Source: Candidatus Omnitrophota bacterium (GTDB lineage: Bacteria; Omnitrophota; Gorgyraeia; Gygaellales; Profunditerraquicolaceae). From it: 64,000 bases of DNA. The notes beneath the pieces are model-generated. The model was not told the DNA's origin, ran no database searches, and saw only the letters and a program-made list of their open reading frames with translations. The stretch lies in contig JAQTQJ010000010.1 of NCBI GenBank assembly GCA_028712255.1, positions 8,097-72,096 on the forward strand, in the 5' to 3' direction. The number at the start of each line of letters is the position of its first letter. Positions within the stretch are counted from its first letter, which is position 1. A program made the position numbers and the translations under genes. Of the stretch, positions 29,103 through 55,935 are shown in pieces.

Positions 29103-29147
29103 AATAAGCTTTAAAGAGAAGACTAAACTGTAAAATATTTTAATTTT

Positions 29148-29834: not shown

Positions 29835-29943
29835 TCAGGCCAGCGGCGCTACCTTTAGTACTTTTAACTATCTGGGGGCCTATATACAACTAAATTGATT
29901 ATGCAAAACTTCCAAGAGCTTACTTTAGAAAAAACCATATTGC

Positions 29944-30877: not shown

Positions 30878-31131
30878 ACCATAAGGGCAATCTAACATTT
30901 TGTTAAAGTCGGAGCAGAATCTACGGTTTGTATCTTTAGGCCCTGTTTAGGAAATGCTATTATCATAGGAATGGCTCCCAACGTAAAGGTGAGTTTGGTA
31001 ATTTTACCAGAAGAGGGAAGATATTTTTTAGATAAGTTAAATCCAGTTTTAGTTTATACAGAGATTAAATTAAGTATTTTAAAATTTATCTACCAGATTT
31101 ATTTTAAAGCAAAACTTCTATTTAAACAAAA

Positions 31132-32691
31132 ATGAAAAAAATATTACTCATTAGGCCTCCACGCTATCTGTGGCCATTCATAAATGAATCTGATAATTTT
31201 TTACTCCCTTTAGGTTTACCTTGTATCGCTGGGGCGATAAGGTCAAAACTTCCTGATATAGAGGTAAAGATTATTGATTGCCCACCACAAAAAATCGGAT
31301 GGGAAACTCTGAGTAAGATATTAAGAGAAGAGAATCCGGATATAGTTGGAGCTGCAGAGGAGGCTCTTTATTGCCATGAAGCGGTAAGGTTATTTAATTT
31401 GGCCAAAGAGATTAATCCTGCTGTAATTACTATTGCCGGGGGGCATTTTTTTTCCTGGATGGTCGATCATAGTTTAACGGATTTTCCCATTGATTTTATT
31501 GTCAGATTTGAAGGTGAGGAGACAATTGTAGAATTAATCGAGGCGCTTAATGAGAAAAAAAACTTAGTTGAAATTAAGGGAATTGCTTATAAGCATAATG
31601 GCCAGATAATCAGGACGCCCTCCAGGCCTTTGATAAAAGATCTGGATATGCTTGCTTTACCCGCATTTGATCTTATGCCCATGGGGAAGTATTCACCGTT
31701 TGGTTATCTTTGGCCCCAGAGCGTTACTTTAGAGCATTCTCGGGGCTGTATCGATAGATGTAATTTTTGCTCTTTGTGGACATTTTGGGGCCAGCACCTA
31801 GAAACAGATATAGAAAAAGGCAAGCTGGATGTAGCCCCTAAATACAGAACCAAGAGCGTGAAGAGGACATTAGAAGAAGTAGATATCGTTTACAAAAAAT
31901 ATAATAGAAAATACATTATTTGGGCAGATCCTACTTTTAACGTTGATTCTAAATGGACCAATGATTTTTGCGACGGGTTGTTAAAAAGAAACTATAAAGA
32001 TCTGCATTGGTGGGCCTTTCTAAGGGCAGATTATCTATTGCGGGATGAGCGGGCAGGTATTTTGGAAAAAATGGTCCGGGCAGGATTAACGCACCCTCTT
32101 ATTGGCGTAGAGCGGGGCTGCACGGAGGATCTTAGAAAAATACGAAAATCTGTTTACACCCGTGATTTAGTAAAAGAAGTTTTTCTTATTTTTAAAAAGA
32201 AATATCCACAGGTATTCCGGCAAGGTACTTTTATTACCTGCCTGCCTTTTGATACCAGAGAGTCAATGTTTGATTTGGTGAAGTATGCCATTGAAATAGA
32301 CATAGATTATCCGGCTTTCCATCCAGTGGCCCCGGTTCCTGGAACATTTCTTTACCAAGATGCCTTAAAAAATGATGCTTTGGCGGAAAAAGATTTTAAG
32401 AAATACGATTGGGCTACTCCAATAATGCGTTCTAATAATGGATTATCAATGGAAGAACTTGGCAAGTTGAACATGGAGCTTAATAAGCGGTATATATTGT
32501 ATAGGCCTCACTGGTTAATAAGAGGCCTGTTCTCTCCCTATAAACATAAAAGAGGGCTTTATTGGTGGTTTTTCTTTAATACCATGAGGATGATTATCTG
32601 CGAAATCAGGGATATAATTTTAAGAAGAAAGAAATTTGCAGGTACTACCGGATTTATGCGCTTAAAAAAACCCGGTTGGTATGATAACTAA
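31132..32691 (+). CDS. cobalamin-binding (class B) radical SAM enzyme
   Basis: N-terminal B12-binding-like domain (…ITIAGGHFFS…). Radical SAM cluster motif SRGCIDRCNFCS (CX3CX2C). 519 aa. Confidence 0.85.
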   Translation: MKKILLIRPPRYLWPFINESDNFLLPLGLPCIAGAIRSKLPDIEVKIIDCPPQKIGWETLSKILREENPDIVGAAEEALYCHEAVRLFNLAKEINPAVITIAGGHFFSWMVDHSLTDFPIDFIVRFEGEETIVELIEALNEKKNLVEIKGIAYKHNGQIIRTPSRPLIKDLDMLALPAFDLMPMGKYSPFGYLWPQSVTLEHSRGCIDRCNFCSLWTFWGQHLETDIEKGKLDVAPKYRTKSVKRTLEEVDIVYKKYNRKYIIWADPTFNVDSKWTNDFCDGLLKRNYKDLHWWAFLRADYLLRDERAGILEKMVRAGLTHPLIGVERGCTEDLRKIRKSVYTRDLVKEVFLIFKKKYPQVFRQGTFITCLPFDTRESMFDLVKYAIEIDIDYPAFHPVAPVPGTFLYQDALKNDALAEKDFKKYDWATPIMRSNNGLSMEELGKLNMELNKRYILYRPHWLIRGLFSPYKHKRGLYWWFFFNTMRMIICEIRDIILRRKKFAGTTGFMRLKKPGWYDN

Positions 32692-32696
32692 ACTAA

Positions 32697-34157
32697 ATGA
32701 AATTATTAATATTAAATCCAATTTCCGATATAGCCACCCCCGGCCAAAGATACAGATCAGTAATATCTTTTGTTCCTCCTGTAGGAATAGCTTATCTGGC
32801 CGGCGCTTTAATCCAGGCCGGCATTGATGTCGATGTAGAAGATCAATTTGCCAGCGGCAATACCAATGAATATATCGCTGATAAAATCAGGCGCGAAAAG
32901 TATGAGCTAATCGGTATATCCTGTTTAACTCCCTCGATATCTAATATCAAAAGGCTGGCTAGGTTGATAAGAGAGATTAACCTGGATATAAAGATTGTCC
33001 TGGGGAATATCCATGCCACGGTTTTTCCGGAAGAAATGTTAAAGGAGGCAACCGGAGATATTGTTGTCCGCGGAGAAGGCGAATATGTCTTTGTCGAAGT
33101 GGTTAAAGCCATCGGCCAGAAAAAAAAGCTAGAAGAGGTAAAAGGCATAAGTTTTATTTCCAATGGAAGGATTGTGCATAATCCCGATAGCTATTTAACC
33201 GAAGATTTGGACCAAATACCTTATCCTGCTTGGCAGACATTTGCGTTTGATCTTTATAAAAGGTATCCTATGTTGGGCATATATAATGAAATAATACTGC
33301 CGATCCAGGCTTCCCGCGGCTGTACGCATAACTGTATTTTTTGTTCACAGAATATTATGTACAAAAAGCCAAGGTATCGAAATACCGAAAAAGTACTGGA
33401 TGAAATAGAGTATATGCACGAAAAGTATAAGATACGCTATTTTGGTTTCAATGACGCCTATTTTCCTTTTTCCGTCGAGCATGGTTTGGATTTTTGTGAA
33501 CGACTTATGAAAAGGGGGCTTCATAAAAAAATAAGGTGGATAACCGAGACTAGGGTAAATAAAGTTAATTTAGAGCTTTTAAAAAAAATGAGGCAAGCTG
33601 GTTTAAGGTTGATAATGTATGGTTTTGAAGTAGGCAACCAGTCGATCCTTGATAGCATAAGAAAACAGACAACCTTGAAGCAGGCAGAGGATGCGATGAG
33701 TTATACAAGAAAAGCCGGTGTGCAAAGCTTAGGCTTATTCATGTTAGGCCTTCCCCAAGATACGGAGGAAACCTGCAGGCAGACTATTGATTTTGCAATC
33801 CGCTTAAGCCCGGATATAGCTAAATTTAATATTACCATTCCCCAGCCGGGGTCAGAATTATATAACTCATGCAAAGACAGCTTAATAAACGCTAAACCCG
33901 AAGATTTTACAAGTTGGTCAGATTGGATCTCACCAAACGGCAGTATTATCTATGCTCCCAAAAATATCACAAGGGAAAAACTGTTATATCTGCAGAGAGA
34001 AGCAATGTTTAGGTATTACATAAATCCAAGACATATCTTAAGGCTGTTATTGAAAAGAGGATTTCATGTCAAGGATATGTATTTAGGCGCTAAATTAATC
34101 GTCGGGAAATACCTGAAAGAAATATTAAAATTTCAAAGTCGAACTCGGACGGCTTAG
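32697..34157 (+). CDS. cobalamin-binding (class B) radical SAM enzyme (close paralog of 46107-47573)
   Basis: B12-binding domain (…IVLGNIHATVF…). SRGCTHNCIFCS motif. About 55% identical to the 46107 ORF over the core by eye. Confidence 0.85.
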   Translation: MKLLILNPISDIATPGQRYRSVISFVPPVGIAYLAGALIQAGIDVDVEDQFASGNTNEYIADKIRREKYELIGISCLTPSISNIKRLARLIREINLDIKIVLGNIHATVFPEEMLKEATGDIVVRGEGEYVFVEVVKAIGQKKKLEEVKGISFISNGRIVHNPDSYLTEDLDQIPYPAWQTFAFDLYKRYPMLGIYNEIILPIQASRGCTHNCIFCSQNIMYKKPRYRNTEKVLDEIEYMHEKYKIRYFGFNDAYFPFSVEHGLDFCERLMKRGLHKKIRWITETRVNKVNLELLKKMRQAGLRLIMYGFEVGNQSILDSIRKQTTLKQAEDAMSYTRKAGVQSLGLFMLGLPQDTEETCRQTIDFAIRLSPDIAKFNITIPQPGSELYNSCKDSLINAKPEDFTSWSDWISPNGSIIYAPKNITREKLLYLQREAMFRYYINPRHILRLLLKRGFHVKDMYLGAKLIVGKYLKEILKFQSRTRTA

Positions 34158-34169
34158 GCTGGCGTTATA

Positions 34170-35867
34170 ATGGAAAAATCTTCAAGGTTTAAACATCAAT
34201 TTGCATTTCTCTTTTTAACCATTCTTATCCTGTTCCATATCATAAATAACTATATTTGGCTAACTAAGAACTCCGCTTTGGGCTTTGGAGATGCTTCATT
34301 GCACCTAGCCAATTCTTTAAATTTTTACAAATATCTTAAAGCAGACGAAGGGAATCTATTCGTAAGAATATTTGATTTATTCAATGGCAATAAAATAATA
34401 TATAGATTTTGGCCGCCTTTTGTCTATCTGGTTACCGCAGGATTACGTTTTATCTTTGGCCATTCACTTATAGCGGTAAAATTGGCGACTTCAAGTTTTT
34501 ATTTCATTATTCTTATTTTATCGGTTCATTTTTTGGGTTACTATTACCGAAATGTACGCACAGGTATATTCTCCGCATTTCTGGTTTCGATGTATGCCGG
34601 TGTTTTTGGCCTATCCAGGGAATACCTTTTAGATTTTCCTCTGGTTGCAATGGTTAGCTTATGTATACTGTTTTTTTTAAAAAGTGATGCATTTAAAAAC
34701 CGTTTATATGCCGTAATCTTTGGGTTAACCTTTGGCATAAGTATTCTTACTAAACCTCAGGCTGCTTTTTTTATTTTACCCGTTGTTCTATGTTTCTTAG
34801 CGGTAAGGACAAAAGATAATCGGCGAGTAAAATTAAAAAATTTTCTATTGGCAATATTAACCGCTTTAACAGTTACTTCTGTCTGGTTTTATGGTTTTTG
34901 GAGCGATAATCCGGATAAATGGTCGGTAAAAAACGCTTTTCTTAGCAGTATTTTTTCGACCTACACGGGCCAAGCAATCAACTTTTCTGCAGGCAAAGAT
35001 TTTTTTCCGGTAGTTGCTAATGCCAGCCTGATAACAAAATTATTCAGTATAAACAATTGGATCTATTATTTGAACGCTATTATTTTATATATCACCCCGA
35101 TTTTTGCTATTATTTTTGTTTTTAGCGTTTATTTTCTTTGTAAATCCCAAAAAGCTCCCAAAGAATTACTTATCTGGGTTATAGTCCCTTATCTCATATT
35201 TTCTTTCCTATCTCCGAAAGATGCGCGTTATTTATTCCCAGCATTTCCGGCAATAACCCTATTAACTGTTGTGGGAGTAGAAAACATAAAAAAACGGTTT
35301 TTTAAAAATTTAACTTTCATTTTAATATTTGTATTGGCCGTGGCTAATTATTATGCTTATTCTTACCTTGGCTCCGACCTTGTTTTCCGGTATAGCCTTA
35401 AGACCAGGCAATCTCTATTCTATGTCCATCCTCCGTTTAAAAGCAATTATCAGCATGTAGTAAAAAGATTTATGGAAGAGATAGGGGGAAGGGGGGATTT
35501 AAGCAAGGTAAATATCGGTATAATTTCTCCGCCAGGCGAATTTGATTTTAAAGGCGCGCCAATTCTGACATATTATATGGAATCCTATAAACCAGATCTT
35601 CCCTGGAAGTGGTCTAAAAAAGACCACTTTTTCAATGATTATAAAAAATATAATTTTTTAATGGTAGTCAACGATTCCGCTGCCGGTGGCTTGAATTTAA
35701 CCCAGCTATTATCCAACACCGGTTATCTAGGTCAAAATAATACTACAATAACAAAAGAAAAAATAAATGAAATTGTAGATTATTTTGAGTCGTTTAAGAT
35801 AATCGACAAAGATGAAATTATAAACGAATTTGATAAAAAGAATATTTTTCTTTACCAGGCCAAGTGA
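34170..35867 (+). CDS. polytopic GT-C-fold membrane glycosyltransferase (ArnT/PMT/GT39-like)
   Basis: 565 aa, about 12 TM at the N-terminus, with a large C-terminal soluble, probably periplasmic, domain. Paralogous to the next gene. The first-loop acidic motif is degenerate (GDAS). Confidence 0.55.
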   Translation: MEKSSRFKHQFAFLFLTILILFHIINNYIWLTKNSALGFGDASLHLANSLNFYKYLKADEGNLFVRIFDLFNGNKIIYRFWPPFVYLVTAGLRFIFGHSLIAVKLATSSFYFIILILSVHFLGYYYRNVRTGIFSAFLVSMYAGVFGLSREYLLDFPLVAMVSLCILFFLKSDAFKNRLYAVIFGLTFGISILTKPQAAFFILPVVLCFLAVRTKDNRRVKLKNFLLAILTALTVTSVWFYGFWSDNPDKWSVKNAFLSSIFSTYTGQAINFSAGKDFFPVVANASLITKLFSINNWIYYLNAIILYITPIFAIIFVFSVYFLCKSQKAPKELLIWVIVPYLIFSFLSPKDARYLFPAFPAITLLTVVGVENIKKRFFKNLTFILIFVLAVANYYAYSYLGSDLVFRYSLKTRQSLFYVHPPFKSNYQHVVKRFMEEIGGRGDLSKVNIGIISPPGEFDFKGAPILTYYMESYKPDLPWKWSKKDHFFNDYKKYNFLMVVNDSAAGGLNLTQLLSNTGYLGQNNTTITKEKINEIVDYFESFKIIDKDEIINEFDKKNIFLYQAK

Positions 35868-37567
35868 AAGCACAATATAAAGGACAGATAATTGTAGCTG
35901 TAATTTTATTTTTTTTAATAATATTTCATGCTATCAATAATTATATTTGGCTTAAGCTGGACTGTCTTTTTACGCCCGTGCATGACGTAGTAAACACGGT
36001 ATCCCACCTAATTAACCAGTTAAATTTTTACTACAATTTAAAGGAGCTTTTAAACTGCGATATCACATTTTTTGGTAAAATTAAGGAATTCATAATGTTT
36101 TTTAAGCCAGGGAATATCTGGCCGCAATTTGAATGGCCGGGTTTTGTTTATTTTGTAACCTCACTGGTCAATTCAATTTTTGGTTTTACACCATTTATTG
36201 TAAGGTTTTCCAATATTATTTTTCTTGCCCTGCTGGCTATATTTACCTACCTGATTGGCAAGCGGTGCTATGACATAAAAGCAGGATTGCTAGCAGCTTT
36301 TTTAGTGACATTTTATCCCAGCTTATTCGGAGTAGGAAGGATGTATGATCTGGACTTTCATTTAACGGCAATGGTTACCATGTGCGTTTATTTTTTGATT
36401 AAAACAACTGATTTCAAGAATAGATTATTTTCAATTATTCTCGGAATTTCGTCAGGTTTAGGCATTTTAACTAAAGGTCAATTTTTAATTTTCTTTATCG
36501 GTCCTTTAACCTTTGCTTTATATTCTATTTTTAAGGACCGTAATCAGAATGGGGGTAATATCCGCCGGCAAGTTTTTAACTTTGTTTTATTTATTTTTTT
36601 TTGTTTATTTATCAGCTCCATATGGTTATTCGCCTCAACTGTCAAGTTATCGCATATTTTTCTGACTCACTTTCTGGCAGGTTATCTTCCGGAAAAATAT
36701 AATTTGTTTGGGCTAGATTTTGATGTTTTTTCAGTCAAATGGATGTTTTATCAGCTGTTTTATATTATAGACCACGTTTCGCTGCCGCTTTATATTGTAT
36801 TTTGTTTTAGTCTTTTCTGGCTACACAAAAAGATTGAACCGGTAATTAATATAATTTTATTGTGGATTTTAATACCTCTGGTCATATTCACCTTGATGTC
36901 GGCAAAATGGGAGCATTATTGTTTTGCTTTTTTACCGGCGATTGCAATTTTGACTGCGGTAGGGGTGATGAAGCTGGGTAGACAGATAAAAATCCCTTTA
37001 ATTTTATTTATTATTGTTTATTCACTCCTGCAATTCTTTGCGGTTTCTTACCGGATTGGACCTAAAATAGTCAAGCTTGTGGCATTTTACAATGTTGTGC
37101 CTCTGCCTGAATGGGGAAGAACAGGCTTATATAAAGCGCCGATAAAAATAAATAATTATGAAAAAATAATTCAGGGATTTGCTGAAAAAATAAAAAAAGA
37201 TGTAAGCTCTAAACGTAAAATACTAGTGGGTATAATCGGGACTAAAGACGAGGAGATTAATGGTTTCCTAGCCTCTTATTATTTGAGAGCGTATCTGGAT
37301 AACTCTGAAGCTTTTATTCTGGCGGATGATTTAAGCTCAATGCCCAATGCCAAATCTATGGCAAAAAGGTTTATTGAAAAAATCGGTGAGTTTAATTTTA
37401 TGATATTGATCAATAGTAGCTTAAAAGACGGCTCAGCTCCTGTAATAACCAATTGCTTATTGGAAGGTCAGTTACTTAAAAAATTAAGCGATAATATAAA
37501 TAAAAGGAAGCTGATTCAAAGGCATAAATTATTTCCCGGCCATAGGAATATTTTTCTTTTTAGGTGA
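35864..37567 (+). CDS. polytopic GT-C-fold membrane glycosyltransferase (paralog of 34170-35867)
   Basis: 567 aa, same architecture and a similar N-terminus (…FHAINNYIWL…). GTG start overlapping the previous stop. Confidence 0.55.
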   Translation: MKAQYKGQIIVAVILFFLIIFHAINNYIWLKLDCLFTPVHDVVNTVSHLINQLNFYYNLKELLNCDITFFGKIKEFIMFFKPGNIWPQFEWPGFVYFVTSLVNSIFGFTPFIVRFSNIIFLALLAIFTYLIGKRCYDIKAGLLAAFLVTFYPSLFGVGRMYDLDFHLTAMVTMCVYFLIKTTDFKNRLFSIILGISSGLGILTKGQFLIFFIGPLTFALYSIFKDRNQNGGNIRRQVFNFVLFIFFCLFISSIWLFASTVKLSHIFLTHFLAGYLPEKYNLFGLDFDVFSVKWMFYQLFYIIDHVSLPLYIVFCFSLFWLHKKIEPVINIILLWILIPLVIFTLMSAKWEHYCFAFLPAIAILTAVGVMKLGRQIKIPLILFIIVYSLLQFFAVSYRIGPKIVKLVAFYNVVPLPEWGRTGLYKAPIKINNYEKIIQGFAEKIKKDVSSKRKILVGIIGTKDEEINGFLASYYLRAYLDNSEAFILADDLSSMPNAKSMAKRFIEKIGEFNFMILINSSLKDGSAPVITNCLLEGQLLKKLSDNINKRKLIQRHKLFPGHRNIFLFR

Positions 37568-37574
37568 AGAGTCA

Positions 37575-38570
37575 ATGAAAACCGCAAACTTAAAAAAACC
37601 CTTGATTAGTTTTATTGTATGCATTTTTATTCTTTTTTCGGCTGAGTTATTCTTGAGAAAAAACGATATTTCCGAAAGGACGGGATTTACAAACATAGGC
37701 GAAATGTTTAATACGGGAGTTTTTAAAAGAGACAGATTGTTATTCTGGAGATTTTCTCCCAGTAAGTTTTATACTAAGCCAAGCACCCATTATAAAGGGG
37801 TATTAAGAGTTAATTCAATCGGTTTTCGGGAAAGAGAAATAAGTAAAGAAAAAGGCCAGCAAACTTACAGGATATTTTGTTTAGGAGGCTCAAATACATG
37901 CGGAGAAGGTTTATTTGAAAATGAAAGGTTTAGCAATATAGTCGAACAAAAATTAAATAGCTTGCCCGGGGCGCTTACTTTTGAAGTTTATAATTTTGGG
38001 ATGCCGGGGTATTCTACTTTACAAATGCTCAGGCTGTTTAAAAATGAACTGATAAATTTTAATCCGGATTTAATAATCGTAAACCCGGAACAGGCGGATG
38101 GATTAGGACTCTCGGGCCTGGCGCCGTTTAGCGATTCTAAGGTTAAAATTTTACCGGCCATTTTTTTTAATTTAACCTGCTTTTTGGAAGATAATAGCTC
38201 TATATATAGATTGGTAAAACAAAATTTGCTAAATGATTCTTGGCGGCTAAGAAATAAAAGGTCAGGAAATTCATCTAAGAGCCTGGTTAGGGTCACTTTG
38301 GAAGAGCATAAAGATAACCTGTCAGAAATGTTAAAGCTAGCAGAAAATAAGGGGGTAAAAATAATTTTTTTGACGGGCCTGGGCATTAGAGACGATAAAG
38401 TGGTTAATGTCGATAAAGACTATGGTTGCCAACCAAGCATAGATATTACGCCTTTATTTAAAGATGGGCAAAAGAACGGCCTGTTTCAGGACCAGGGGCA
38501 CATTAGCGCTAAAGGGCATTACTTGGTTGCAGAATTGTTAGCAGAATATATCAAGAATAATCTTTTCTAA
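37575..38570 (+). CDS. membrane-anchored SGNH/GDSL-family hydrolase (esterase / acyl-transferase-like)
   Basis: N-terminal TM anchor. Block I is FCLGGSNTCGEG with a Ser nucleophile. Paralog of 47549-48520. Confidence 0.65.
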   Translation: MKTANLKKPLISFIVCIFILFSAELFLRKNDISERTGFTNIGEMFNTGVFKRDRLLFWRFSPSKFYTKPSTHYKGVLRVNSIGFREREISKEKGQQTYRIFCLGGSNTCGEGLFENERFSNIVEQKLNSLPGALTFEVYNFGMPGYSTLQMLRLFKNELINFNPDLIIVNPEQADGLGLSGLAPFSDSKVKILPAIFFNLTCFLEDNSSIYRLVKQNLLNDSWRLRNKRSGNSSKSLVRVTLEEHKDNLSEMLKLAENKGVKIIFLTGLGIRDDKVVNVDKDYGCQPSIDITPLFKDGQKNGLFQDQGHISAKGHYLVAELLAEYIKNNLF

Positions 38571-38578
38571 AAAACGTT

Positions 38579-39301: not shown

Positions 39302-39374
39302 ATTAATATTTCCTGAAAATGTGGTATGATAACTTTAGTAAAAAGCCTTATTTAATTACGGAGCAAGTTAAATA

Positions 39375-40160: not shown

Positions 40161-40165
40161 CAAAT

Positions 40166-41637
40166 ATGAAAAGAGAAAATATCTTTGTTTTTTTTTAAGC
40201 ATTTTCTCTTTTTTTGTTTTTTTAGATCTTTATGTATCGAAAATTATAACTTCGCCAAAATTTGACAGCTATATATTATATAATGTAGACGATATATTCC
40301 ACTTCTGCTACGCCAAATCCGCCTTAATTAATCCTCTTGTACTCTTAAATCCGTATGCCAAACCCCTGCCTACCATAATCCAAGCCTTGACATTAAAGAT
40401 ATTTTCTCCTTCCTTTGTTACTTTAAGGATTATTAATTCGTTTTTATCGGTCTTGACCCTGTTTTTATTGTATCTTTTTACCAGGCAATCGAAAATGCGC
40501 AATTGGCTTATTGCCGCACCGGTTGCCCTTACCTTAATTTCTCCATTTTATTTTCTTAGCTGTCTATCCGCTATAGTAGAGCCGTTTTTTGGCTTATTTC
40601 TTATTTTGTCTGTATTTTTGCTCTATAAAAAGAAATACCTTTTAAGCAGCGTAATAATTTCGTTACTTCCCGTAACTCACCAGTTAGGCGTTATTTACGC
40701 TGCGCCGGCAGTTGTCTATTTTTTTACTAGACGAAAATACAATTACTGCCTATTAATTTTACTTCCTTCCTTACTTTGGGTGATTCTTAACCAAATCATA
40801 TTAAAACATGGTTTAGCTTACACATTTTTTTATCCCGGGAAGATTTCCCCTTATTCCCGTCCTCCCGAAAACTCAATGCTGCCTATAGGCCAGATTAACC
40901 CGCTGTTTTTTGTATCCTTTTTACCTATGGCTGTATTTTTTATTTTTGGCTTGATAAACTCCTGGATTAAGAAAGAAAACCTGTTGATTAACCTGTTTAT
41001 CCTTCCGATATTAACTATCGTAATCGGCTATAATATTTATTTAATCAATACGCAAAGGTCTTTTTGGTGGGAGTTTCGCTATCTTGTCCCAATTATTCCT
41101 TTTTTCTCGTTTATCGTCGTAAACGGCATTGATTATATTAGCCAGAAATTACCCAAAAGCAAAAATTCCAGTTATTTTACATTTTTCTTTATTTTAATTT
41201 TAATCAGTTCACAGGCAATGCAATTTTTTTATTTAGAAAATAATAAGAGAGTGTTAGCCGAACGGATTTCTCCTGTTCAGGAGGAAAAATTGAAGTCAGT
41301 CTCTAATTGGTTAAATAATTTTATGAATGAAAATAAAATAAAGAATTTATATCTTTTAAACGGAGGAGATATAACCGATAAATATGTCCGCAGGATTTGG
41401 ATGTATTTGGAAAAGAAATATAACTTCTATTGTTTTACAAAAGACTTTAATAATAATGATAAAATAGAGTTGTTTGATACGATTACCTATAAATTTAAAG
41501 AGCCAAAGGAAATTTCAGGGGTTTTTTTGCATACGAAAAGAAGCCTTAATAACGCTTTTTTACCAGCCGGTTTTAGGTCCCGGATGATCAAAGAAGAACC
41601 CGAAGTTTTTTTATATTTTTTTATACCCGATAATTAA
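40166..41637 (+). CDS. GT-C-fold membrane glycosyltransferase, interrupted by a +1 frameshift in a T9 tract (40188-40196); paralog of 43082-44554
   Basis: The ORF track starts at the TTG at 40387. About 75 upstream in-frame codons (…FDSYILYNVDDIFHFCYAKSALINPLVLLNPYAKP…) align with the N-terminus of the 43082 paralog (…FNIDESLHYCYAKSALYYPIALINPFAKV…). They have no start codon. The ATG at 40166 (MKRENIFVFF) enters this frame only if the T9 run is T10. Confidence 0.55.
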
Positions 41638-41659
41638 TTGTTAAGGAATTTATTTTATT

Positions 41660-43081
41660 ATGGTAATTACTTTAATAAATCTGCCGGCTAAAAGGTTTCG
41701 TTTTACTACTTTAGGCGTTCTTCCGCCGTTGGGCCTGGCTTATTTAGCTTCGGTTTTGGAAAAAGAAGGGCATGAAGTTGAAATAATCGATATTCCGGCT
41801 GAAAATATTTCAATTAAAGATTTTCAAGCCAGGGTTGGGTTGAAAAAGAGCGATATTTACGGAATAAGTAGCACACTTTTTGGTTTTCAGGATGTAATTA
41901 AATTTTCTGCTTTAATCCGCAAGGTAGATCCGCAATCGCTTATTATCCTTGGTGGTTTATGTACGGTGCTTTCACCCGAACTGATACTTAAAAACATCCC
42001 CGAAATCGATATTGTTGTCCAGGGGGAAGGCGAGGTAGCAATGAAGCGGATCTGCAGTTCTTTAGCCGCAAAAACGCGCTGGGATGGTATTGGCGGAGTT
42101 TGTTTCAGGCATAACGGAAGTTATTTTTATAATCAGGAAATCGAGTTAATTAACTTTGATGAACTTCCCCTTCCGGCTTACCATTTACTTAATATTAAAC
42201 ATTATTACCTGCATCCGCCTTTTGGGCTTTACTCTCCGGTTATAAGCATGGAAACTAGCAGGGGATGTATTTTTAAATGTGAATTTTGCTGTTTATCCAA
42301 GAATTACAGGGCTAGGCTAGTTGAAAGTGTAGTCGAAGAAATGGTTTATTTGAAGAGAACCTATGGTATTAATGAGATATATTTTGTCGACCACACATTT
42401 ACGATATCCCAGGAATATATTAGAATGCTTTGCCAGAGGATAATTGATAAAAAGCTTAAGCTTCACTGGACCTGTAAAACTAGAGTTGATTGTGTTAGCC
42501 CGGAAACCTTAAAAATTATGAAAGCAGCCGGCTGTTATATGATTTCTTACGGCGTTGAATCTGGTTCGGAAAAGATACTCAAGAATCTAAACAAAGGTAT
42601 TACAGTAGCCGACATTGAAACTGCCTTTGTTTTAACAAGAAAATACGGGATACGTTCAATTGCTTACCTGATTGTCGGCTCTCCCGGGGAAAACAAAGAT
42701 ACGATTAAAGAGACTTTAAGGATGGTCAGGAGGATAAAACCAGATTATGTGCTTTATAACGCATTGGCGCCTGATCCGGCCTCAGAGCTTTATAACCGGG
42801 CAATTAATGAAAAAATAGTTTCAAAAAATTTTTTTGGCAGATCTATTTTTCTGGAACCAAAGGTTCAGTGGCCGATGTATACTACTAACGAATTTAGCCG
42901 CTCGGACATAGATTTTTGGGTAAGGAAGGGGACAAGGGATTTTTATCTAGATATTTTTTATATAATCAGGTGTTTACTAAGGATTAGGACGCTTAATGAA
43001 GTTAAAGTTGTTTTAAAGGGAGCATTCTCGCTTATCGCCGACATGATTTGCTTAAAGCGGAAGCAGCTAGTGGATTATTAG
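41660..43081 (+). CDS. cobalamin-binding (class B) radical SAM enzyme
   Basis: B12-binding region (…IILGGLCTVLSPE…). SRGCIFKCEFCC motif. 473 aa. Confidence 0.85.
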   Translation: MVITLINLPAKRFRFTTLGVLPPLGLAYLASVLEKEGHEVEIIDIPAENISIKDFQARVGLKKSDIYGISSTLFGFQDVIKFSALIRKVDPQSLIILGGLCTVLSPELILKNIPEIDIVVQGEGEVAMKRICSSLAAKTRWDGIGGVCFRHNGSYFYNQEIELINFDELPLPAYHLLNIKHYYLHPPFGLYSPVISMETSRGCIFKCEFCCLSKNYRARLVESVVEEMVYLKRTYGINEIYFVDHTFTISQEYIRMLCQRIIDKKLKLHWTCKTRVDCVSPETLKIMKAAGCYMISYGVESGSEKILKNLNKGITVADIETAFVLTRKYGIRSIAYLIVGSPGENKDTIKETLRMVRRIKPDYVLYNALAPDPASELYNRAINEKIVSKNFFGRSIFLEPKVQWPMYTTNEFSRSDIDFWVRKGTRDFYLDIFYIIRCLLRIRTLNEVKVVLKGAFSLIADMICLKRKQLVDY

Positions 43082-44554
43082 ATGAAAATTTTCGGCTTAA
43101 AATTTTCCTCATATTTTTATATCTTATTCTGCCTATCAGCAATCTATTTATATTTTGATTGGGTTGCTTCCGACCAGATTTATAGTATAAAATTAGACCG
43201 TTTTGAGTTGTTTAATATCGACGAGTCGCTACATTATTGTTATGCTAAATCAGCATTGTATTATCCGATAGCCTTAATTAATCCGTTTGCCAAGGTCGGT
43301 TTTACATCAAGCTGTTTTTTGTTTTTAAAGATATTTTCTGAGAATATCTTAAGCTTAAGGATAATGAATTCAGTCTATTCTATCGGTGTGTTCATATTAA
43401 TGGTTAAAATTGGATCTTTTTTAAAACTGTCTAAAAAAACAGTGGTTTTAAGCATAATTCTTACGGCATTTTTCCCCCTATTTTTCCTCGGTTCAATTTC
43501 AGTCATAAATGAAGCGATGTTTTCTTTTTTCCTTTTAGTTGCAATCTGGTCAGCCTATAAAGAAAAGCTTTTTGCCTCCGCTTTAGCCGTATCGTTTCTT
43601 CCTCTAATCAGCCAATTCGGTTTCATTTACCTGCTTATCTGGACGGCTTGGTTGATTAAGAAAGGAAAATTTAAACCGGTTATTTTAATTTTTGGGCCGA
43701 CTGTCTTGTGGACAATCACAAACATGCTTCTTTTGGGGCATTCTCTGTTTTATACTCTTTATTATCGAACCTTACTTATGCCACATCCCCCTTTAGACAG
43801 CCTGGTGACCCCCGGGGAATTTGTTAATTTCTATTTTTTAACCTTTTGTCCGTTGATAATTTTATTCATATTCCTTTCTGTATTTAACCGGAAAAAATAT
43901 CTGGGAGATGGAAAACTTTGGTTAATTCAGGCGGTTTTGGTTTTCCAATTGTTGCAGTTTATTTTTGAAATTTTCATTATGCCTTTTTTTTACAGTGGGA
44001 TGTTTATTTATAAAATTAGGCAGTTAATTCCGGCCGTACCTTTGTTGGCAATTTTAACCGCCTTTATTTTAGAGAAAACAATTCAGGCAGTTAAAAAGAG
44101 TAGGCTGGGAGACTACCTTTATATTTTAATAGCCGCGATTTCAATCGTTTATCTTCCGTATTCTATTATTAAACTTCAAAAATTCCCTTTGATTAAAAAT
44201 GAGTTTTTAAGCCCCGAGCAGGAAAAATCCATAATCGAAGCCGGCGTTTGGTTAAAAGGTTACTGCCAAAAACATGATATTACCTCTTTAGTAGGAGATG
44301 GAGAGGATCTTCCTTCTTCCGTAAACCGCAGGATTTGGATGCAGGCGCCGAATAAAATTATATATTATGGAACTAAAGGCCTAAAAAGGGTCCCTAATAC
44401 GGCGCTTAACCTTTTAACTTATAAGAGTTCTCCGATAGGCGCGCTTGAGAAATGTTTATTCCTGGTCCGTAATCCCGACAAAAGCTTGGTATCAACAGAA
44501 ATTAAATTAATAAAAGATTTTCCTTCAATTTCATTATATTTTTATGCCAAATAA
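43082..44554 (+). CDS. GT-C-fold membrane glycosyltransferase
   Basis: 490 aa, polytopic. The first-loop acidic motif is FNIDESLHY. The ATG is immediately adjacent to the previous stop. Confidence 0.55.
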   Translation: MKIFGLKFSSYFYILFCLSAIYLYFDWVASDQIYSIKLDRFELFNIDESLHYCYAKSALYYPIALINPFAKVGFTSSCFLFLKIFSENILSLRIMNSVYSIGVFILMVKIGSFLKLSKKTVVLSIILTAFFPLFFLGSISVINEAMFSFFLLVAIWSAYKEKLFASALAVSFLPLISQFGFIYLLIWTAWLIKKGKFKPVILIFGPTVLWTITNMLLLGHSLFYTLYYRTLLMPHPPLDSLVTPGEFVNFYFLTFCPLIILFIFLSVFNRKKYLGDGKLWLIQAVLVFQLLQFIFEIFIMPFFYSGMFIYKIRQLIPAVPLLAILTAFILEKTIQAVKKSRLGDYLYILIAAISIVYLPYSIIKLQKFPLIKNEFLSPEQEKSIIEAGVWLKGYCQKHDITSLVGDGEDLPSSVNRRIWMQAPNKIIYYGTKGLKRVPNTALNLLTYKSSPIGALEKCLFLVRNPDKSLVSTEIKLIKDFPSISLYFYAK

Positions 44555-46094
44555 AGATAAGCCTTTACTTAAAAATCCGGTTATTCTAGCCATTCTGCTA
44601 GTCTGCGGGTTAATTTTAAGGCTCTATCATTTAGGCGTAAGGAGTCTTTGGTTCGACGAAGCATATACAATTTTTAACGGGCAATACCTTGCTTCTGTCG
44701 TTTCTCGGCTCGGCGCATTACCGGACAGGTATCCTTCGTTTTTATCCGATATACCGGTCTATTTTTGGTCACTTTTGTCAGGTAGGAATGAATTTACCCT
44801 CAGGTTATTTTCAGTAGTATTCGGCATAGCCGCAATATGGCTTATCTATAAATTTGGGTTGAAGATTTTCGGCCAGAAAACCGCTTTAATTGCTGCGTTT
44901 TTGTTGGCAATTTCTCCTATCCATATTTATTATTCTCAAGAATTAAGGCCATACTCATTGATTTTATTAATCAGCCTAGGCTCAGCATTGTTTTTACTAA
45001 AAGCCCTGGAAAAAGGGGCTTTGGCATTTTGGACTGGTTACGTTATTTTAAACGTTTTAAATATCTACCTGCATTATATGACAATTTTTTTCCTGTTCGC
45101 CCAGGTGGTATTTTTCCTGATTTTTATGAAAGATTATAAAAATCAGATTAGAAAATGGATATTTTATAATTCAGTAATTTTTGTTTTATTAGCGCCCTGG
45201 CTTATAAACAGCATCATTTTACTGAAAGCTTCGCTGGGGCCTGATTTATATCTTTGGGTGCCCTCTTGGGCTAAAACCATCGGAGCCAAAAATATTTTTT
45301 TTACAATCAAAAATTTCAGCATAGGTTATAATGTAGAAAAGCAGGCATATGTATTTATTACGGTATTTCTCACCGGCATATTGGCTTTCGGGATAACTAG
45401 GTTAAAGAAAAATGAAGTCAAAAACTATGTCCTATGCTTATGTTGTTTTGTCCTGCCGATATTGAGCATGTTTTTAATCTCTAAAGTCAAAGTTTGGTAT
45501 GTCGACAGGTATGTATTGGGTAGCCTACCTTTTTACTATATACTAATAGGCAATAGCCTAGCAAAAATAAGGACCAGATATGCCTTTTTATTATTAGGCG
45601 TTGTTGCTTTGTTTTGTGCCTTTTCTTTAAATAATTATTATCAAAGCCGATCTCTAGATGCTGCAAGTTGCATCGGCATAGTCTATAAGTATGATTATAA
45701 AGATGCTGCGGATTATTTGGCGCAAAACATGGAAGATGGGGACATCGTTTTTCATACTTCTTACAGCTCGACAGTGCCTTTTATGTATTATCTGAAGAAA
45801 AGTAGTTTAAGTAGCGCTAATGAAAGGCCCGCTTTTGTATTATTCCCGGCAAATGAGAACAAAATAGAAGCCAGGGAGCTTTTATTAAAAGGGTGTAAGT
45901 TTAAAAATATTGACTATGACGACTTTGTATCTGGTAAAAGAAGGATTTGGCTGGTATGTTCAGATTGGTTTTTTAATGAAAAAAACTGTTTTGATTCCAA
46001 AGCCTACCAGATAGCGCGCTGGATGCAGGATAACTATAAAGAAAAAGAAAGCTGTTTGTTTAAAGGGATAATATTGTATCTGTTTGAAAGGTAA
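44544..46094 (+). CDS. glycosyltransferase family 39/83 (ArnT/PMT_2-like) membrane protein
   Basis: Canonical …LYHLGVRSLWFDEAYTIFNG… first-loop DE motif of PMT/ArnT-type GT-C enzymes. 516 aa, about 12 TM plus a C-terminal soluble domain. Confidence 0.75.
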   Translation: MPNKDKPLLKNPVILAILLVCGLILRLYHLGVRSLWFDEAYTIFNGQYLASVVSRLGALPDRYPSFLSDIPVYFWSLLSGRNEFTLRLFSVVFGIAAIWLIYKFGLKIFGQKTALIAAFLLAISPIHIYYSQELRPYSLILLISLGSALFLLKALEKGALAFWTGYVILNVLNIYLHYMTIFFLFAQVVFFLIFMKDYKNQIRKWIFYNSVIFVLLAPWLINSIILLKASLGPDLYLWVPSWAKTIGAKNIFFTIKNFSIGYNVEKQAYVFITVFLTGILAFGITRLKKNEVKNYVLCLCCFVLPILSMFLISKVKVWYVDRYVLGSLPFYYILIGNSLAKIRTRYAFLLLGVVALFCAFSLNNYYQSRSLDAASCIGIVYKYDYKDAADYLAQNMEDGDIVFHTSYSSTVPFMYYLKKSSLSSANERPAFVLFPANENKIEARELLLKGCKFKNIDYDDFVSGKRRIWLVCSDWFFNEKNCFDSKAYQIARWMQDNYKEKESCLFKGIILYLFER

Positions 46095-46106
46095 GCAAAA
46101 AGTTAA

Positions 46107-47573
46107 ATGAAGGTATTGCTGATAAACCCCCAATCCAAGGCCATCGAAAAAAGCTGTATTTGGCAGCGGGAGATGTTGACTCCGGTTATTCCTTTGGGCT
46201 TAGCTTATATTGCCGCGGTACTGGAGAAAAACACGATACCAGTGAAAGTTTTTGACCAGGTTGCCGAAAAATGGAATGAAGATAAATTATTCGCCAGTAT
46301 TGTAAGCGAAAAGCCTGATCTGGTTGGCATAACCTGTCTTAGCGCAAGCATGGATACAGTAATCTCTTTATCCCGGAGGATCAAAAACTACAATAAAGAT
46401 ATTAAAATTATTTTAGGCAATATTCACGCTTCGATATTTGCCAAACAGTTGTTAAACGCAGGCATAGCGGATATTATTGTCCACGGTGAAGGTGAATACA
46501 CCATGCTTGAGGTTGTTTCGAGGATAGAAAGAAAGCTTAATTTCAGCGGGATAGGGGGGATCGGTTATATCGAAGAAGGCAAACTGTATAATAACCGAGA
46601 AAATTACATAATTCCGGATTTGGACAATTTACCATATCCAGCGTTTCACCTGTTCGATTTAAATAAATATAAAGAGATCCCCTTGGCTTCGATTTACGGC
46701 GAAATTGCCCTGGTGATTTCAGCTTCAAGAGGTTGTCCTTTTGATTGCATTTTTTGCGCCCAAAATAAAATTTTTGCCAAAACCAGATACAGAAAAATTG
46801 AAAATGTCATTGATGAAATGGAATATATGCATACGATATACAATGCGAAATATTTTGGTTTTGTGGACGCCTTTTTCCCTTTTTCCATAGAGCATGGAAT
46901 GGAATTTTGCGAACAACTTATAAAAAGGGGGTTAAATAAAAAGGTCAGGTGGGTTACCGAGACCGTGGTTAACCTGATTGACCCGCAATTGACCAAGAAA
47001 ATGAAAGAAGCTGGGCTGCATATGCTTGAGTTTGGTTTTGAATCCGGAAGCCAGAGGGTGCTTGATACCTTCGGAAAAAAAATTAACCTGGAACAGGGCA
47101 AAAAAGCTGTCCGTTATGCAAAAGACGCCGGTATTCTTACTCTTGGCCTGTTTATGCTTGGGCTTCCCGGCGAGACTGCCGAAGAATGCGAGCAAACTGT
47201 AAAGTTTGCCAAAGAATTAGATTGCGACTTCGTGAAATTTAATTTAGCTACGCCTTATCCAGGCTCAAGGTTATATGAGCTCAGTATGGAAAAAATAGGT
47301 AAAATCAGAAATTTAAGCGGGTTTAACAGCTGGTATGACTGGTTTGAAAATAAAGATAATGAATTTTATACAGTGGGTCTAATGAGCGTAAAAGAACTCA
47401 GGAATATCCAGCGAAAAGCAATGTTCAGTTTTTATTTTCGGCCGGTCAAGGTAATAAAAACAATAGTCAATAAAAGGGTGTCCTTTAAGTTCTTGCTGTT
47501 TGGAGCGATGTTGCTGTTAACCGGTTATTTTAAGGCGCTTTCGGGGAAATGGGAAAAACCAAAGATAAATTAA
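46107..47573 (+). CDS. cobalamin-binding (class B) radical SAM enzyme (paralog of 32697-34157)
   Basis: …IILGNIHASIF… B12-binding region. SRGCPFDCIFCA motif. 488 aa. Confidence 0.85.
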   Translation: MKVLLINPQSKAIEKSCIWQREMLTPVIPLGLAYIAAVLEKNTIPVKVFDQVAEKWNEDKLFASIVSEKPDLVGITCLSASMDTVISLSRRIKNYNKDIKIILGNIHASIFAKQLLNAGIADIIVHGEGEYTMLEVVSRIERKLNFSGIGGIGYIEEGKLYNNRENYIIPDLDNLPYPAFHLFDLNKYKEIPLASIYGEIALVISASRGCPFDCIFCAQNKIFAKTRYRKIENVIDEMEYMHTIYNAKYFGFVDAFFPFSIEHGMEFCEQLIKRGLNKKVRWVTETVVNLIDPQLTKKMKEAGLHMLEFGFESGSQRVLDTFGKKINLEQGKKAVRYAKDAGILTLGLFMLGLPGETAEECEQTVKFAKELDCDFVKFNLATPYPGSRLYELSMEKIGKIRNLSGFNSWYDWFENKDNEFYTVGLMSVKELRNIQRKAMFSFYFRPVKVIKTIVNKRVSFKFLLFGAMLLLTGYFKALSGKWEKPKIN

Positions 47574-48520
47574 CAGTTTCTTTTATTTCTCTATTTTTTT
47601 CTTTATTGTTGATCGAAATAATTTTGAGGTTAACTTATCCGTTATACTCAAATTATGCGATGGAGATGTGGAGGTATGGAATAAATTTAAAAAAGCAAGC
47701 TTCCGATCGCTCTATTACTCATGAACATGCCCCGAATAAAAGTTTTCGCTTTTATGGAGTTGAAATAAAGACAAACTCGCTGGGGTTAAGGAGCGATAGG
47801 GAGTATTTAGCGCCAAAACCGCAAAATTTAAAGCGGATACTGGTCTTAGGAGATTCTATAACTATGGGTTGGGGAGTAAGTTTTAAAGAAACATACCCTT
47901 ATATTCTGGAAACCCTTATAAATAAAGGCTCCAAGTTAAATTTGGAAGTAATCAACTCAGGGGTAGGTAATTACAATTCAGTTTCAGAGTTATCAGCTTT
48001 AAAAAGGCTTAGCGTCTTAGAACCTGACATGATAATATTGGGTTTCTATATAAATGATCTTGAAGATATCCGGCCTTCTTCGGGTATAAGTTATTTTCTA
48101 AGCAGACATTCCTATCTTTATGCATTTATTTGGAGTAAATTAATCAATATAAAATACTATTATCCCAACAATGATTATCGGGCCTATTATTCAAAGCTAT
48201 ATCAAGACCCAAATTTAAGGCTTAAAGCAAAAGATGCGATTAACCGGATGATCGAGATTGCCGATAAGCGCCGGATACCTTTTGTATTTATCAATATACC
48301 GGAAATGCACAGCTTTAAAGAAGGTTCTTTTGAAGCCGCGCGGAATTTTACGAAAGAGATAAAAAGAGAACACCCGGAAATTATTTTCGTCGACCTGGCA
48401 GAAACTTTAAAAGGAAAGAATGCGCGGGATTTCTGGGTTTCTTCCGAAGATCCGCATCCGAATGCCAGCCTGCACAGGATTATCGCCGAGTCGATTTATA
48501 GCTCAATTGGTGGCAAATGA
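47549..48520 (+). CDS. membrane-anchored SGNH/GDSL-family hydrolase (paralog of 37575-38570)
   Basis: N-terminal TM. Block I is VLGDSITMGWG. Confidence 0.65.
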   Translation: MGKTKDKLTVSFISLFFSLLLIEIILRLTYPLYSNYAMEMWRYGINLKKQASDRSITHEHAPNKSFRFYGVEIKTNSLGLRSDREYLAPKPQNLKRILVLGDSITMGWGVSFKETYPYILETLINKGSKLNLEVINSGVGNYNSVSELSALKRLSVLEPDMIILGFYINDLEDIRPSSGISYFLSRHSYLYAFIWSKLINIKYYYPNNDYRAYYSKLYQDPNLRLKAKDAINRMIEIADKRRIPFVFINIPEMHSFKEGSFEAARNFTKEIKREHPEIIFVDLAETLKGKNARDFWVSSEDPHPNASLHRIIAESIYSSIGGK

Positions 48521-48672: not shown

Positions 48673-48682
48673 CCATAAACAT

Positions 48683-49726: not shown

Positions 49727-49731
49727 TAAAT

Positions 49732-55929: not shown

Positions 55930-55935
55930 CTAAAT

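Follow-up and report, generated by a model that had tools for sequence, protein, structure and literature searches.

Why should genes for four cobalamin (B12)-binding radical S-adenosylmethionine (rSAM) enzymes be interleaved, in one closely packed run, with genes for membrane glycosyltransferases of the GT-C type and for membrane-anchored SGNH hydrolases? The question is raised by positions 31132-48520 of a 64,000-nucleotide stretch of DNA from a Candidatus Omnitrophota bacterium (assembly GCA_028712255.1, contig JAQTQJ010000010.1, positions 8,097 to 72,096 of the forward strand), the whole of which is referred to here as the window. The region holds 13 consecutive open reading frames (ORFs), all on the + strand, and is part of a glycan locus that spans about 35 kb. 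The reading that we favour, at roughly even chances, is that these genes form a conserved Omnitrophota operon that would, in the absence of oxygen, tailor unusual sugars and attach them to a glycan of the cell envelope; the function so assigned is a prediction from genomic context. The 13 genes are the following.

rSAM1, 31132-32691, + strand: B12-binding radical SAM enzyme, a distinct orthogroup.
rSAM2, 32697-34157, + strand: B12-binding radical SAM enzyme (Pfam 98.6 and 75.2 bits).
GTC1, 34170-35867, + strand: GT-C protein matching Pfam PMT_2 and PMT, with 8 hydrophobic segments; paralog of GTC2.
GTC2, 35864-37567, + strand: GT-C protein (PMT_2, 52.4 bits) with a weak ArnT match; overlaps GTC1 by 4 nt.
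SGNH1, 37575-38570, + strand: Lipase_GDSL protein (26.4 bits, gathering score 23.6) with an N-terminal membrane anchor.
GT2, 38579-39301, + strand: Glycos_transf_2 protein (112 bits) of the polyprenyl-phosphate sugar synthase type.
Tandem-repeat protein, 39375-40160, + strand: secreted or anchored protein with two repeats of about 100 aa.
GTC3, 40166-41637, + strand: GT-C protein of the family named here GTCb, frameshifted in a run of nine T (40188-40196).
rSAM3, 41660-43081, + strand: B12-binding radical SAM enzyme, a third orthogroup.
GTC4, 43082-44554, + strand: GTCb family protein without a Pfam or NCBIfam match.
GTC5, 44544-46094, + strand: GT-C protein (PMT_2, 55.1 bits) with weak Agl23 and mannosyltransferase matches.
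rSAM4, 46107-47573, + strand: B12-binding radical SAM enzyme, an old paralog of rSAM2.
SGNH2, 47549-48520, + strand: Lipase_GDSL_2 protein (45.2 bits, gathering score 32.9) with an N-terminal anchor; overlaps rSAM4 by 25 nt.

The domain content and the gene order agree with most of what an initial annotation, made from the letters of the sequence, had claimed for this region. Each member of the proposed run of 13 co-directional genes was recovered on the + strand at its expected position. Both the B12-binding and the Radical_SAM domains of Pfam were found above the gathering score in the proteins starting at 31132, 32697, 41660 and 46107, which confirms the four B12-binding radical SAM enzymes. 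PMT_2 was found in the proteins starting at 34170, 35864 and 44544, a GDSL family in those at 37575 and 47549 and Glycos_transf_2 in that at 38579, while the Pfam scan gave no family for 39375, 40387/40166 and 43082. Neighbouring genes of the 13 overlap by at most 25 nt or are separated by at most 22 nt, with the exception of one gap of 73 nt. The stop of rSAM3 and the start of GTC4 abut (43081/43082), and SGNH2 starts (47549) inside rSAM4 (46107-47573). These short or overlapping junctions support the translational coupling that had been suggested for most of the genes. A scan of the operon for promoter and terminator consensus sequences returned sites no more often than shuffled sequence did, and gave no information on its boundaries. 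The strand bias is extreme over the whole window (1-64000): every real-looking ORF of at least 150 aa is on the + strand, and the GC skew is positive throughout.

Judged by their sequences, rSAM1 to rSAM4 are class-B radical SAM enzymes in architecture and fall outside every described family. Each has a CxxxCxxC motif (CIDRCNFC in rSAM1, CTHNCIFC in rSAM2, CIFKCEFC in rSAM3 and CPFDCIFC in rSAM4), the cysteines of which are invariant in our alignments A1 and A3 and correspond to C206, C210 and C213 of rSAM1 (A3). rSAM1 also has a conserved KPxWYD motif at its C-terminus. The rSAM2 protein, for which NCBI has a 100% identical entry from a Candidatus Omnitrophica metagenome-assembled genome, was the one chosen for modelling, and its AlphaFold2 (AF2) model had a predicted local distance difference test (pLDDT) score of 89.3. 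Foldseek superposed this model over its full length on TsrM, AprD4, MgmA, OxsB, CysS and TokK, with E-values of 1e-26 to 1e-17 and TM-scores of 0.6-0.72, AprD4 giving the highest TM-score. The same six enzymes were the best matches of the rSAM profiles in sequence searches of the PDB, where AprD4 (6fd2) came first for rSAM1 and rSAM2, the match covering the radical SAM core alone. No transmembrane (TM) segments were found in the four proteins, except false positives in Rossmann strands. They are predicted to be cytoplasmic, so that any radical step would precede export and would not itself be periplasmic.

None of the four proteins attains the cut-off of any curated NCBIfam family. BchE (TIGR02026, cut-off 481.35 bits) scored 201.6, 242.2, 178.1 and 200.4 bits against rSAM1 to rSAM4, respectively, and HpnJ (TIGR03471, cut-off 577.6 bits) scored 117.4, 201.3, 187.0 and 171.8 bits, so that even the best matches remain under half of the cut-off. 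BchE was the top match for rSAM1, rSAM2 and rSAM4, and HpnJ for rSAM3 (187 bits); HpnJ was first or second for all four, and dozens of further class-B families scored below these two. Membership of rSAM1-4 in the BchE or the HpnJ family is ruled out by the curated cut-offs. A placement in a BchE-type family with an established role, which had been named beforehand as a finding that would speak against the proposal, was thus not obtained (117.4-242.2 bits vs. cut-offs of 481-578). The overall class-B architecture is shared with BchE, the anaerobic Mg-protoporphyrin monomethyl ester cyclase, at the level of the superfamily; unlike in BchE systems, there are no chlorophyll-pathway genes, and the Omnitrophota host is non-phototrophic.

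As far as these comparisons allow, the four enzymes appear about equally near to the methylases TsrM, MgmA, CysS and TokK, to the ring-contracting OxsB, to the cyclase BchE, to HpnJ and to AprD4. The suggestion that their reactions are probably C-methylations is for this reason unproven: BchE, HpnJ and AprD4, the last being one of the two closest structures, are not methylases. A rearrangement of the HpnJ type or a deoxygenation of the AprD4 type is equally compatible with the data. AprD4 has the class-B architecture and yet is not known to use cobalamin; thus the B12 domain is no proof either of B12 use or of methylation. AprD4, the best sequence match of the rSAM1 and rSAM2 profiles and the best by TM-score for the rSAM2 model, is a sugar diol dehydratase that does radical chemistry on an aminoglycoside sugar. 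GenK and GenD1 are B12-dependent C-methylases of aminoglycoside pathways. In contrast to these enzymes of secondary metabolism, which act on soluble pseudo-oligosaccharides, rSAM1-4 combine strong B12-domain matches with an envelope-glycan context.

Five GT-C glycosyltransferases had been proposed, and this number is correct: three are recognised through PMT_2 and two, GTC3 and GTC4, through fold and remote homology, which makes two GT-C families in all. All five are polytopic, with 8-12 hydrophobic segments apiece (10-12 in GTC3 and GTC4), and the acidic motifs GFGDAS, VHDVV, NVDDIF, NIDESL and WFDEAY, the last in GTC5, follow the first TM segment. In alignment A2 of the GTCb family a D..N.D motif (D39, N45, D47) is invariant at this position. 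The AF2 model of GTC4 was of low confidence (pLDDT 56.6, predicted TM-score 0.64); its top 13 Foldseek matches in the PDB were all GT-C proteins (among them ALG9, ALG12, STT3, ArnT, AftA and PglB), with TM-scores of 0.31-0.51. Comparison of the GTCb family with GTC5 by hhalign gave an E-value of 1.9e-4, and PDB sequence searches with the GTCb profile and with GTC5 returned no match. At E<=1e-3 the GTCb profile collected 1226 representative clusters. When ten distant members were scanned, two matched Pfam PMT and two carried an N-terminal GT2 domain, one protein (P0183) doing both. In GTC3, the ATG at 40166 is followed by a stop after ten codons, and the long frame resumes in another phase (40387-41637). 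Lengthening the T9 run (40188-40196) by a single T, to T10, restores a protein of 490 aa that aligns with GTC4 from the N-terminus. Possible causes of this frameshift are an error of assembly, decay, or slipped-strand phase variation of a gene for surface glycans.

The Dpm1/GtrB-like character ascribed to GT2 is borne out by its best sequence matches in the PDB, namely the dolichyl-phosphate mannose synthase (DPMS) of Pyrococcus (5mlz, 2.3e-17), ArnC and GtrB (5ekp), which cover the full catalytic domain. AglJ, ArnC, PgfS and PpgS were its best NCBIfam matches, all equivalog cut-offs being missed. Both SGNH proteins have, besides their GDSL matches, a single N-terminal TM segment, in line with the two membrane-anchored hydrolases that had been described; the nucleophile serine lies in block I (LGGSNT in SGNH1 and LGDSIT in SGNH2). 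SGNH2 also shows a weak match to the Leptospira LA_2486 family, and the literature on the Leptospira loci that name the LA_2486 and LA_2490 SGNH families yielded nothing useful. The protein encoded at 39375 had been called a secreted beta-sandwich protein. An N-terminal hydrophobic segment agrees with a secreted or anchored protein; the beta-sandwich label is so far a proposal, and what we observed is a tandem repeat, with internal units of about 100 aa that are 31% identical (E 5e-13). A homolog of this gene lies immediately 5' of a GTCb gene in the related loci L003 and L008.

Conservation was examined by comparing the neighbourhoods of two rSAM2 homologs, of 80 genome loci found with the rSAM2 profile and of 80 metagenome loci found with the rSAM1 profile (all numbered with the prefix L); their ORFs were annotated with profiles built from the window proteins and spot-checked with Pfam. 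Homologs of rSAM2 with 45-80% identity are many, and those with a named host are almost all from Omnitrophota. Collinearity with the window is seen in the closest relative, L008 (Omnitrophica UBA6249), which contains, in order, rSAM1 (76% identity), rSAM2 (68%), a GTC2-like protein (44%), an SGNH1-like protein (52%), a GTC5-like protein (31%), the tandem-repeat protein (45%), a GTC3-like protein (45%), rSAM3 (60%) and rSAM4 (61%). The same families occur in shuffled order in L003, L005-L007, L009, L010 and L085-L087, all from Omnitrophota. Overall, the gene set recurs in related genomes at 45-82% protein identity, so chance is not a credible explanation. A conserved neighbourhood, the absence of which had been named in advance as a possible refutation, was therefore found.

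The association extends beyond the closest relatives. The 16 loci that matched best in the genome scan (L005-L020) have 33-68% identity to rSAM2; 14 of them exceed 9 kb, and 9 of these 14 contain GT-C genes. Orthologs of rSAM1, 37-82% identical, adjoin rSAM2 orthologs in L001, L008, L013, L014, L015 and L016, the last three being assemblies labelled Deltaproteobacteria, Myxococcales and Elusimicrobiota, respectively. In L020, an Oligoflexia assembly, rSAM1 and rSAM2 orthologs lie in one cluster together with an rSAM3 ortholog (37%; 60% in L008 and 41% in L001). The metagenome scan gave nine true rSAM1 orthologs, and the other 71 loci contained paralogs of about 30% identity.

The history of the operon appears to be older and more complex than the two rounds of a duplicated module that had been proposed. 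All the underlying similarities are present: rSAM2 and rSAM4 (32697/46107) are paralogs with 43% identity (E 3e-147), SGNH1 and SGNH2 (37575/47549) are distant ones, with 27% identity over 232 aa (pairwise E 3e-11), and the GT-C pairs GTC1/GTC2 (34170/35864) and GTC3/GTC4 (40166/43082) share 29% (E 5e-46) and 28.5% (E 5e-52), respectively. A duplicated module is nevertheless too simple. The four rSAMs represent three old orthogroups, and each has its own ortholog in L008, which indicates that they were separate before the lineages of the window and of L008 split. Furthermore, the rSAM1-rSAM2 pair is kept across phyla, and the GT-C pairs belong to different families. By these comparisons, the operon consists of three old rSAM orthogroups (1; 2 and 4; 3) plus old duplicates, with GT-C pairs of two families.

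The class of substrate is suggested by domain fusions and by the sugar-nucleotide genes of the relatives, which indirectly favour sugars over lipids or peptides. A fusion of GT2 and radical SAM domains is encoded in the window at 60663-62576 and, with a SPASM domain, in L013:17441-19627 and L016:211-2295 (- strand); in both Omnitrophota and Elusimicrobiota, proteins built in this way are encoded close to B12-rSAM arrays. The radical SAM domain of the window fusion is homologous to stand-alone rSAM/SPASM genes of about 350 aa in eight related loci. In L006 and L065 a B12-rSAM is itself fused to an rSAM-SPASM domain. A protein of L081 (17114-19489) combines a B12-rSAM, 29% identical to rSAM2, with a carbohydrate deacetylase domain of the YdjC type, and this domain matches HpnK best (201.7 bits vs. 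a cut-off of 232.6). The loci of relatives also encode a DegT-type sugar aminotransferase, NAD-dependent sugar epimerases/dehydratases, an AsnB-like amidotransferase, a sulfatase-family protein and a class-I methyltransferase. On this basis we favour sugars as the probable substrates of the rSAMs.

The genes that flank the operon, on which both the favoured reading and its alternatives draw, are the following.

Three decayed genes, 28168-31105, + strand: PapB-like rSAM/SPASM maturase, UbiA prenyltransferase and variant radical SAM protein.
DUF5989 membrane peptide of 51 aa, 48517-48672, + strand: Pfam 39.1 bits (gathering score 27); its start overlaps the SGNH2 stop (ATGA).
U32-family protein and a 278-aa protein without family, 48653-50541, + strand: their link to the operon is tentative.
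Glycan-assembly block, 50532-58659, + strand: Wzy_C/O-antigen-ligase-like protein, GT4, WecA-like protein, UDP-galactopyranose mutase (UGM)-like FAD oxidoreductase, ABC-2 permease and Wzt/TagH-like ATPase.
GT2::radical SAM fusion, 60663-62576, + strand: Glycos_transf_2 at aa 10-133 and Radical_SAM at aa 333-495.

The Wzt/TagH-like ATPase of the downstream block has 907 aa, and a GH44-like protein is encoded, like the GT2::radical SAM fusion, after this block. The decayed upstream genes were recognised by tblastn of the intact L085 genes against the window. The PapB-family maturase has an internal deletion and was named from the intact copy (503 aa, L085:4058-5566); UbiA is frameshifted near 29830, and the variant radical SAM gene, of NF045502 type, has four in-frame stops (29142-31105). 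At 27922-29102 a Lys-rich ORF of 36 aa, ending in ...SRYCRSGRVLW, precedes the maturase fragments; this looks like a decayed cassette for a ribosomally synthesised and post-translationally modified peptide, unrelated to the glycan genes. Farther upstream lie genes for a MoxR ATPase, a DUF58 protein and large Big_2-domain proteins (20745-27798), a P-type ATPase (18166-20733) and a complex-I/Mrp-like membrane module (11186-18064). MoxR and DUF58 orthologs (88% and 73%) also stand directly beside the rSAM/GT-C cluster of L003 (17893-21488).

Peptidase_U32 genes occur both in the window and in its relatives. The protein encoded at 48653 matches Peptidase_U32 (PF01136) with 90.8 bits and is weakly UbiU-like (77.7 bits vs. 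a cut-off of 440); the neighbouring 49705 protein has no family. Pairs of U32 paralogs of about 400 aa, 32-48% identical within a pair, are found among the B12-rSAM genes of L001 (4725-6987), L003 (7565-10026), L006 and L007. The window has no ortholog of this pair, its own U32 protein being of another subfamily, and the pair was rejected for the window as a conserved part of the operon. U32 proteins of such kind are known as O2-independent hydroxylases, and a link of the relatives' pairs to rSAM chemistry is possible. Arrays of 6-11 B12-rSAM genes within about 20 kb are present in L014, L056, L059, L075, L083 and L088, some beside GT2 or GT4 genes; the hosts are Deltaproteobacteria, Bathyarchaeia, assemblies labelled 'bacterium' and a metagenome contig. 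In L001:1-3185, genes for an MBOAT protein, a PP-binding carrier protein and a rSAM::AMP-binding fusion precede a U32/B12-rSAM array, which is followed by SGNH/NonGDSL-TPR genes. Together these genes make up an acylation set of the Dlt-like type, and no GT-C gene lies within 10 kb.

The envelope-glycan context that had been proposed is sustained by the type of GT2, by the GT-Cs and the anchored SGNH proteins, and by the block of WecA, GT4, Wzm-Wzt and O-antigen-ligase-like genes directly downstream. From the established roles of the GtrB/ArnC/DPMS, GT-C and SGNH families and from the three-component paradigm (PMC11127046), we infer the following order of steps, with the substrates and the chemistry; what has been observed is the inventory of parts, their gene order, their conservation and the fusions. 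GT2 would charge polyprenyl phosphate with a sugar. The four soluble B12-rSAMs would alter sugar precursors, either lipid-linked or nucleotide-linked, in the cytoplasm, and would probably act together with the SPASM-type radical SAM enzymes encoded nearby. Their chemistry might be C-methylation, the commonest class-B reaction; a rearrangement of a lipid-linked hexosamine, as by HpnJ, or a deoxygenation, as by AprD4, would fit equally well. The tailored lipid-linked sugars would then be flipped across the membrane, where each of the five GT-Cs may hand on its own kind of lipid-linked sugar to an acceptor that has been exported. As the adjacent WecA, Wzm and Wzt genes suggest, this acceptor is most likely a polymer that is primed by WecA and leaves the cytoplasm through the ABC transporter encoded downstream. 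Finally, on the periplasmic side, O-acyl groups would be attached or taken off by the two membrane-anchored SGNH enzymes.

Three-component periplasmic glycosylation (GtrB/GtrA/Gtr* of Shigella and Salmonella, ArnC/ArnT, CsbB/YfhO) is the closest described kind of system. As in these systems, a GT2 of the polyprenyl-phosphate-sugar-synthase type stands beside GT-Cs, and the locus also has a WecA-primed assembly block of the ABC-transporter type. The operon differs from them in that it has five GT-Cs of two families and no recognisable flippase gene, and in that four translationally coupled B12-rSAM genes are interleaved with the others, with further rSAM types nearby. In Citrobacter, a UbiA-type polyprenyl-phosphoribose synthase works with a GT136 GT-C (PMC11127046, where the three-component paradigm is reviewed). 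In contrast, the UbiA of the window is a pseudogene, its best matches are not of the DPPRS type, and no HAD domain was found as the phosphatase partner. A UbiA/GT-C pentofuranose system of this kind was ruled out, since the window UbiA is a pseudogene of another subtype.

A parallel for the radical step itself is offered by hopanoid biosynthesis, where HpnI adds N-acetylglucosamine, HpnK yields the glucosaminyl lipid and the B12-rSAM HpnJ yields the bacteriohopanetetrol cyclitol ether (PMC12324291). Both systems would have a GT2, a sugar-tailoring step and a B12-rSAM that acts on a lipid-attached sugar at the cytoplasmic face, and the L081 fusion mirrors HpnJ/HpnK; it unites the HpnJ and HpnK types in a single polypeptide, away from any recognised hopanoid context. 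Unlike the Hpn pathway, the operon has GT-C and SGNH partners, and neither the window nor the loci examined showed hopanoid genes; the matches of the window ORFs scanned included no hopanoid pathway family.

Several observations weigh against the proposal of a sugar-tailoring operon. The rSAMs match no curated family, which leaves their substrate and reaction type unconstrained, and the structural model that supports the GTCb assignment is the low-confidence one of GTC4. GTC3 is frameshifted and three upstream genes are pseudogenes, so the pathway may partly be decaying in this genome. No flippase of the GtrA, SMR, MATE or Wzx type was found in the operon, and no transporter among all the ORFs of at least 100 aa checked in the 31-50.5 kb region, where the DUF5989 peptide is the sole small membrane ORF; nor is there a nucleotide-sugar enzyme within 31-48.5 kb of the window. 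In addition, farther rSAM homologs often occur in arrays of 4-11 rSAMs in which no glycosyltransferase was detected with our home-made profiles, which have limited sensitivity.

Among the alternatives, an unlikely one that still retains some weight is that the rSAMs act on a lipid, such as the polyprenyl carrier or a membrane or hopanoid-like lipid, by methylation, cyclisation or cross-linking, while the GT-C and GT2 enzymes glycosylate that lipid or act separately. Known class-B rSAMs methylate hopanoids, and our proteins show weak similarity to HpnR, to HpnJ and to the ladderane-associated TIGR04072; all these matches are, however, far under the cut-offs. UbiA genes are another argument for a lipid. 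An intact UbiA, with the variant radical SAM gene, lies directly 5' of the rSAM1 ortholog in L085 (7900-10001), where the window has its pseudogene, and UbiA matches follow rSAM2 orthologs in L011 and L015; the best NCBIfam matches of this UbiA are prenyltransferases of the DGGGP-synthase and chlorophyll-synthase type. Against this stands the fact that UbiA has decayed in the window genome whereas the rSAMs are intact. Moreover, the fusions found give these rSAMs GT2 and carbohydrate deacetylase partners but no lipid enzyme, and it is sugar-nucleotide enzymes that the loci of relatives encode.

It is improbable that the rSAMs modify a peptide or protein, like the C-methylases that act on ribosomal peptides or on methyl-coenzyme M reductase, with the PMT-like GT-Cs O-glycosylating a secreted protein such as the giant Big_2 proteins encoded upstream or the 39375 protein. 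PMT_2 and PMT are indeed protein O-mannosyltransferase families, and a conserved secreted protein is encoded within the operon. The rSAMs also resemble the peptide-modifying class-B enzymes ApyD, TIGR03975 and MgmA, the glutamine methylase of methyl-coenzyme M reductase (9ccb), but these matches are no better than others, and all the NCBIfam ones are below the cut-off. The decayed PapB-like maturase and the small Cys-containing ORF just upstream seem at first to point the same way; however, the PapB-like gene is not kept with the cluster, having been seen in L085 and L008 only, and belongs to a separate decayed cassette. No precursor-peptide gene is kept beside the rSAMs in the related loci examined, and the GT2, SGNH, WecA, ABC-transporter and sugar-nucleotide genes suit polysaccharide chemistry.

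Quite improbable too is a co-location without coupling, in a variable envelope island that gathered paralogous rSAMs of unrelated role (for instance in BchE-type cofactor or tetrapyrrole chemistry). In its favour, BchE is the top NCBIfam match of three of the four rSAMs, gene order varies among relatives, and the rSAM array of L001/L002 stands with SGNH-TPR, MBOAT and carrier-protein genes and with no GT-C within 10 kb. Against it, the BchE scores reach 178-242 bits vs. a cut-off of 481, start/stop overlap or abutment joins rSAM genes to GT-C or SGNH genes (at 43081/43082 and at 47549 in 46107-47573), L008 is collinear, and fusions of rSAMs to GT2 and to a deacetylase are repeated.

The favoured reading, an operon for the tailoring and attachment of envelope sugars, may be extended with less confidence. 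In this wider form, the B12-rSAMs and the SPASM-type rSAMs would constitute a widespread anaerobic pathway of radical glycan tailoring, acting on polyprenyl-phosphate-linked or nucleotide-linked sugars, with dedicated GT-Cs that install the C-methylated, deoxygenated or rearranged products on the cell envelope, in Omnitrophota, Elusimicrobiota, relatives among Desulfobacterota/Myxococcota and possibly Bathyarchaeia; both the pathway and this range of taxa are tentative, and the balance seems to us somewhat against them.

The initial annotation did not recognise the region as a described system, and we found no description of one in the searchable full-text literature, most subscription journals being outside its coverage. 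Within this literature no paper joins a cobalamin-dependent rSAM with a GT-C or deals with U32 proteins in B12-binding rSAM clusters, and searches on B12-dependent rSAMs with glycan, lipopolysaccharide and C-methylation gave nothing relevant. A preprint on Omnitrophota genomes names radical SAM solely as a Pfam domain inside giant proteins, and the words glycan, polysaccharide, lipid and sugar are absent from a 2026 review of B12-dependent rSAM enzymes. The operon thus looks like an undescribed variant of periplasmic three-component glycosylation. We regard the chance as substantial that an anaerobic route to unusual surface sugars, widespread and so far uncharacterised, is what it stands for.

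Few enzyme groups are as large and as little characterised as the class-B radical SAM enzymes, none of which, to our knowledge, has been assigned to the assembly of a cell-surface glycan. The GTCb family defined here adds a GT-C family of about 1200 representative clusters outside Pfam coverage. If the rSAMs do tailor lipid-linked or nucleotide sugars, this would mean a new sugar chemistry on the envelope of Omnitrophota, bacteria that are ultra-small and may depend on a host; routes to branched, deoxy or carbocyclic sugars that need no oxygen would come to light, and a compact operon would be at hand for heterologous expression. If the pathway is as widespread as its wider form supposes, it would provide the first physiological role for a large block of uncharacterised class-B rSAMs, and would lead to surface sugars of undescribed kinds.

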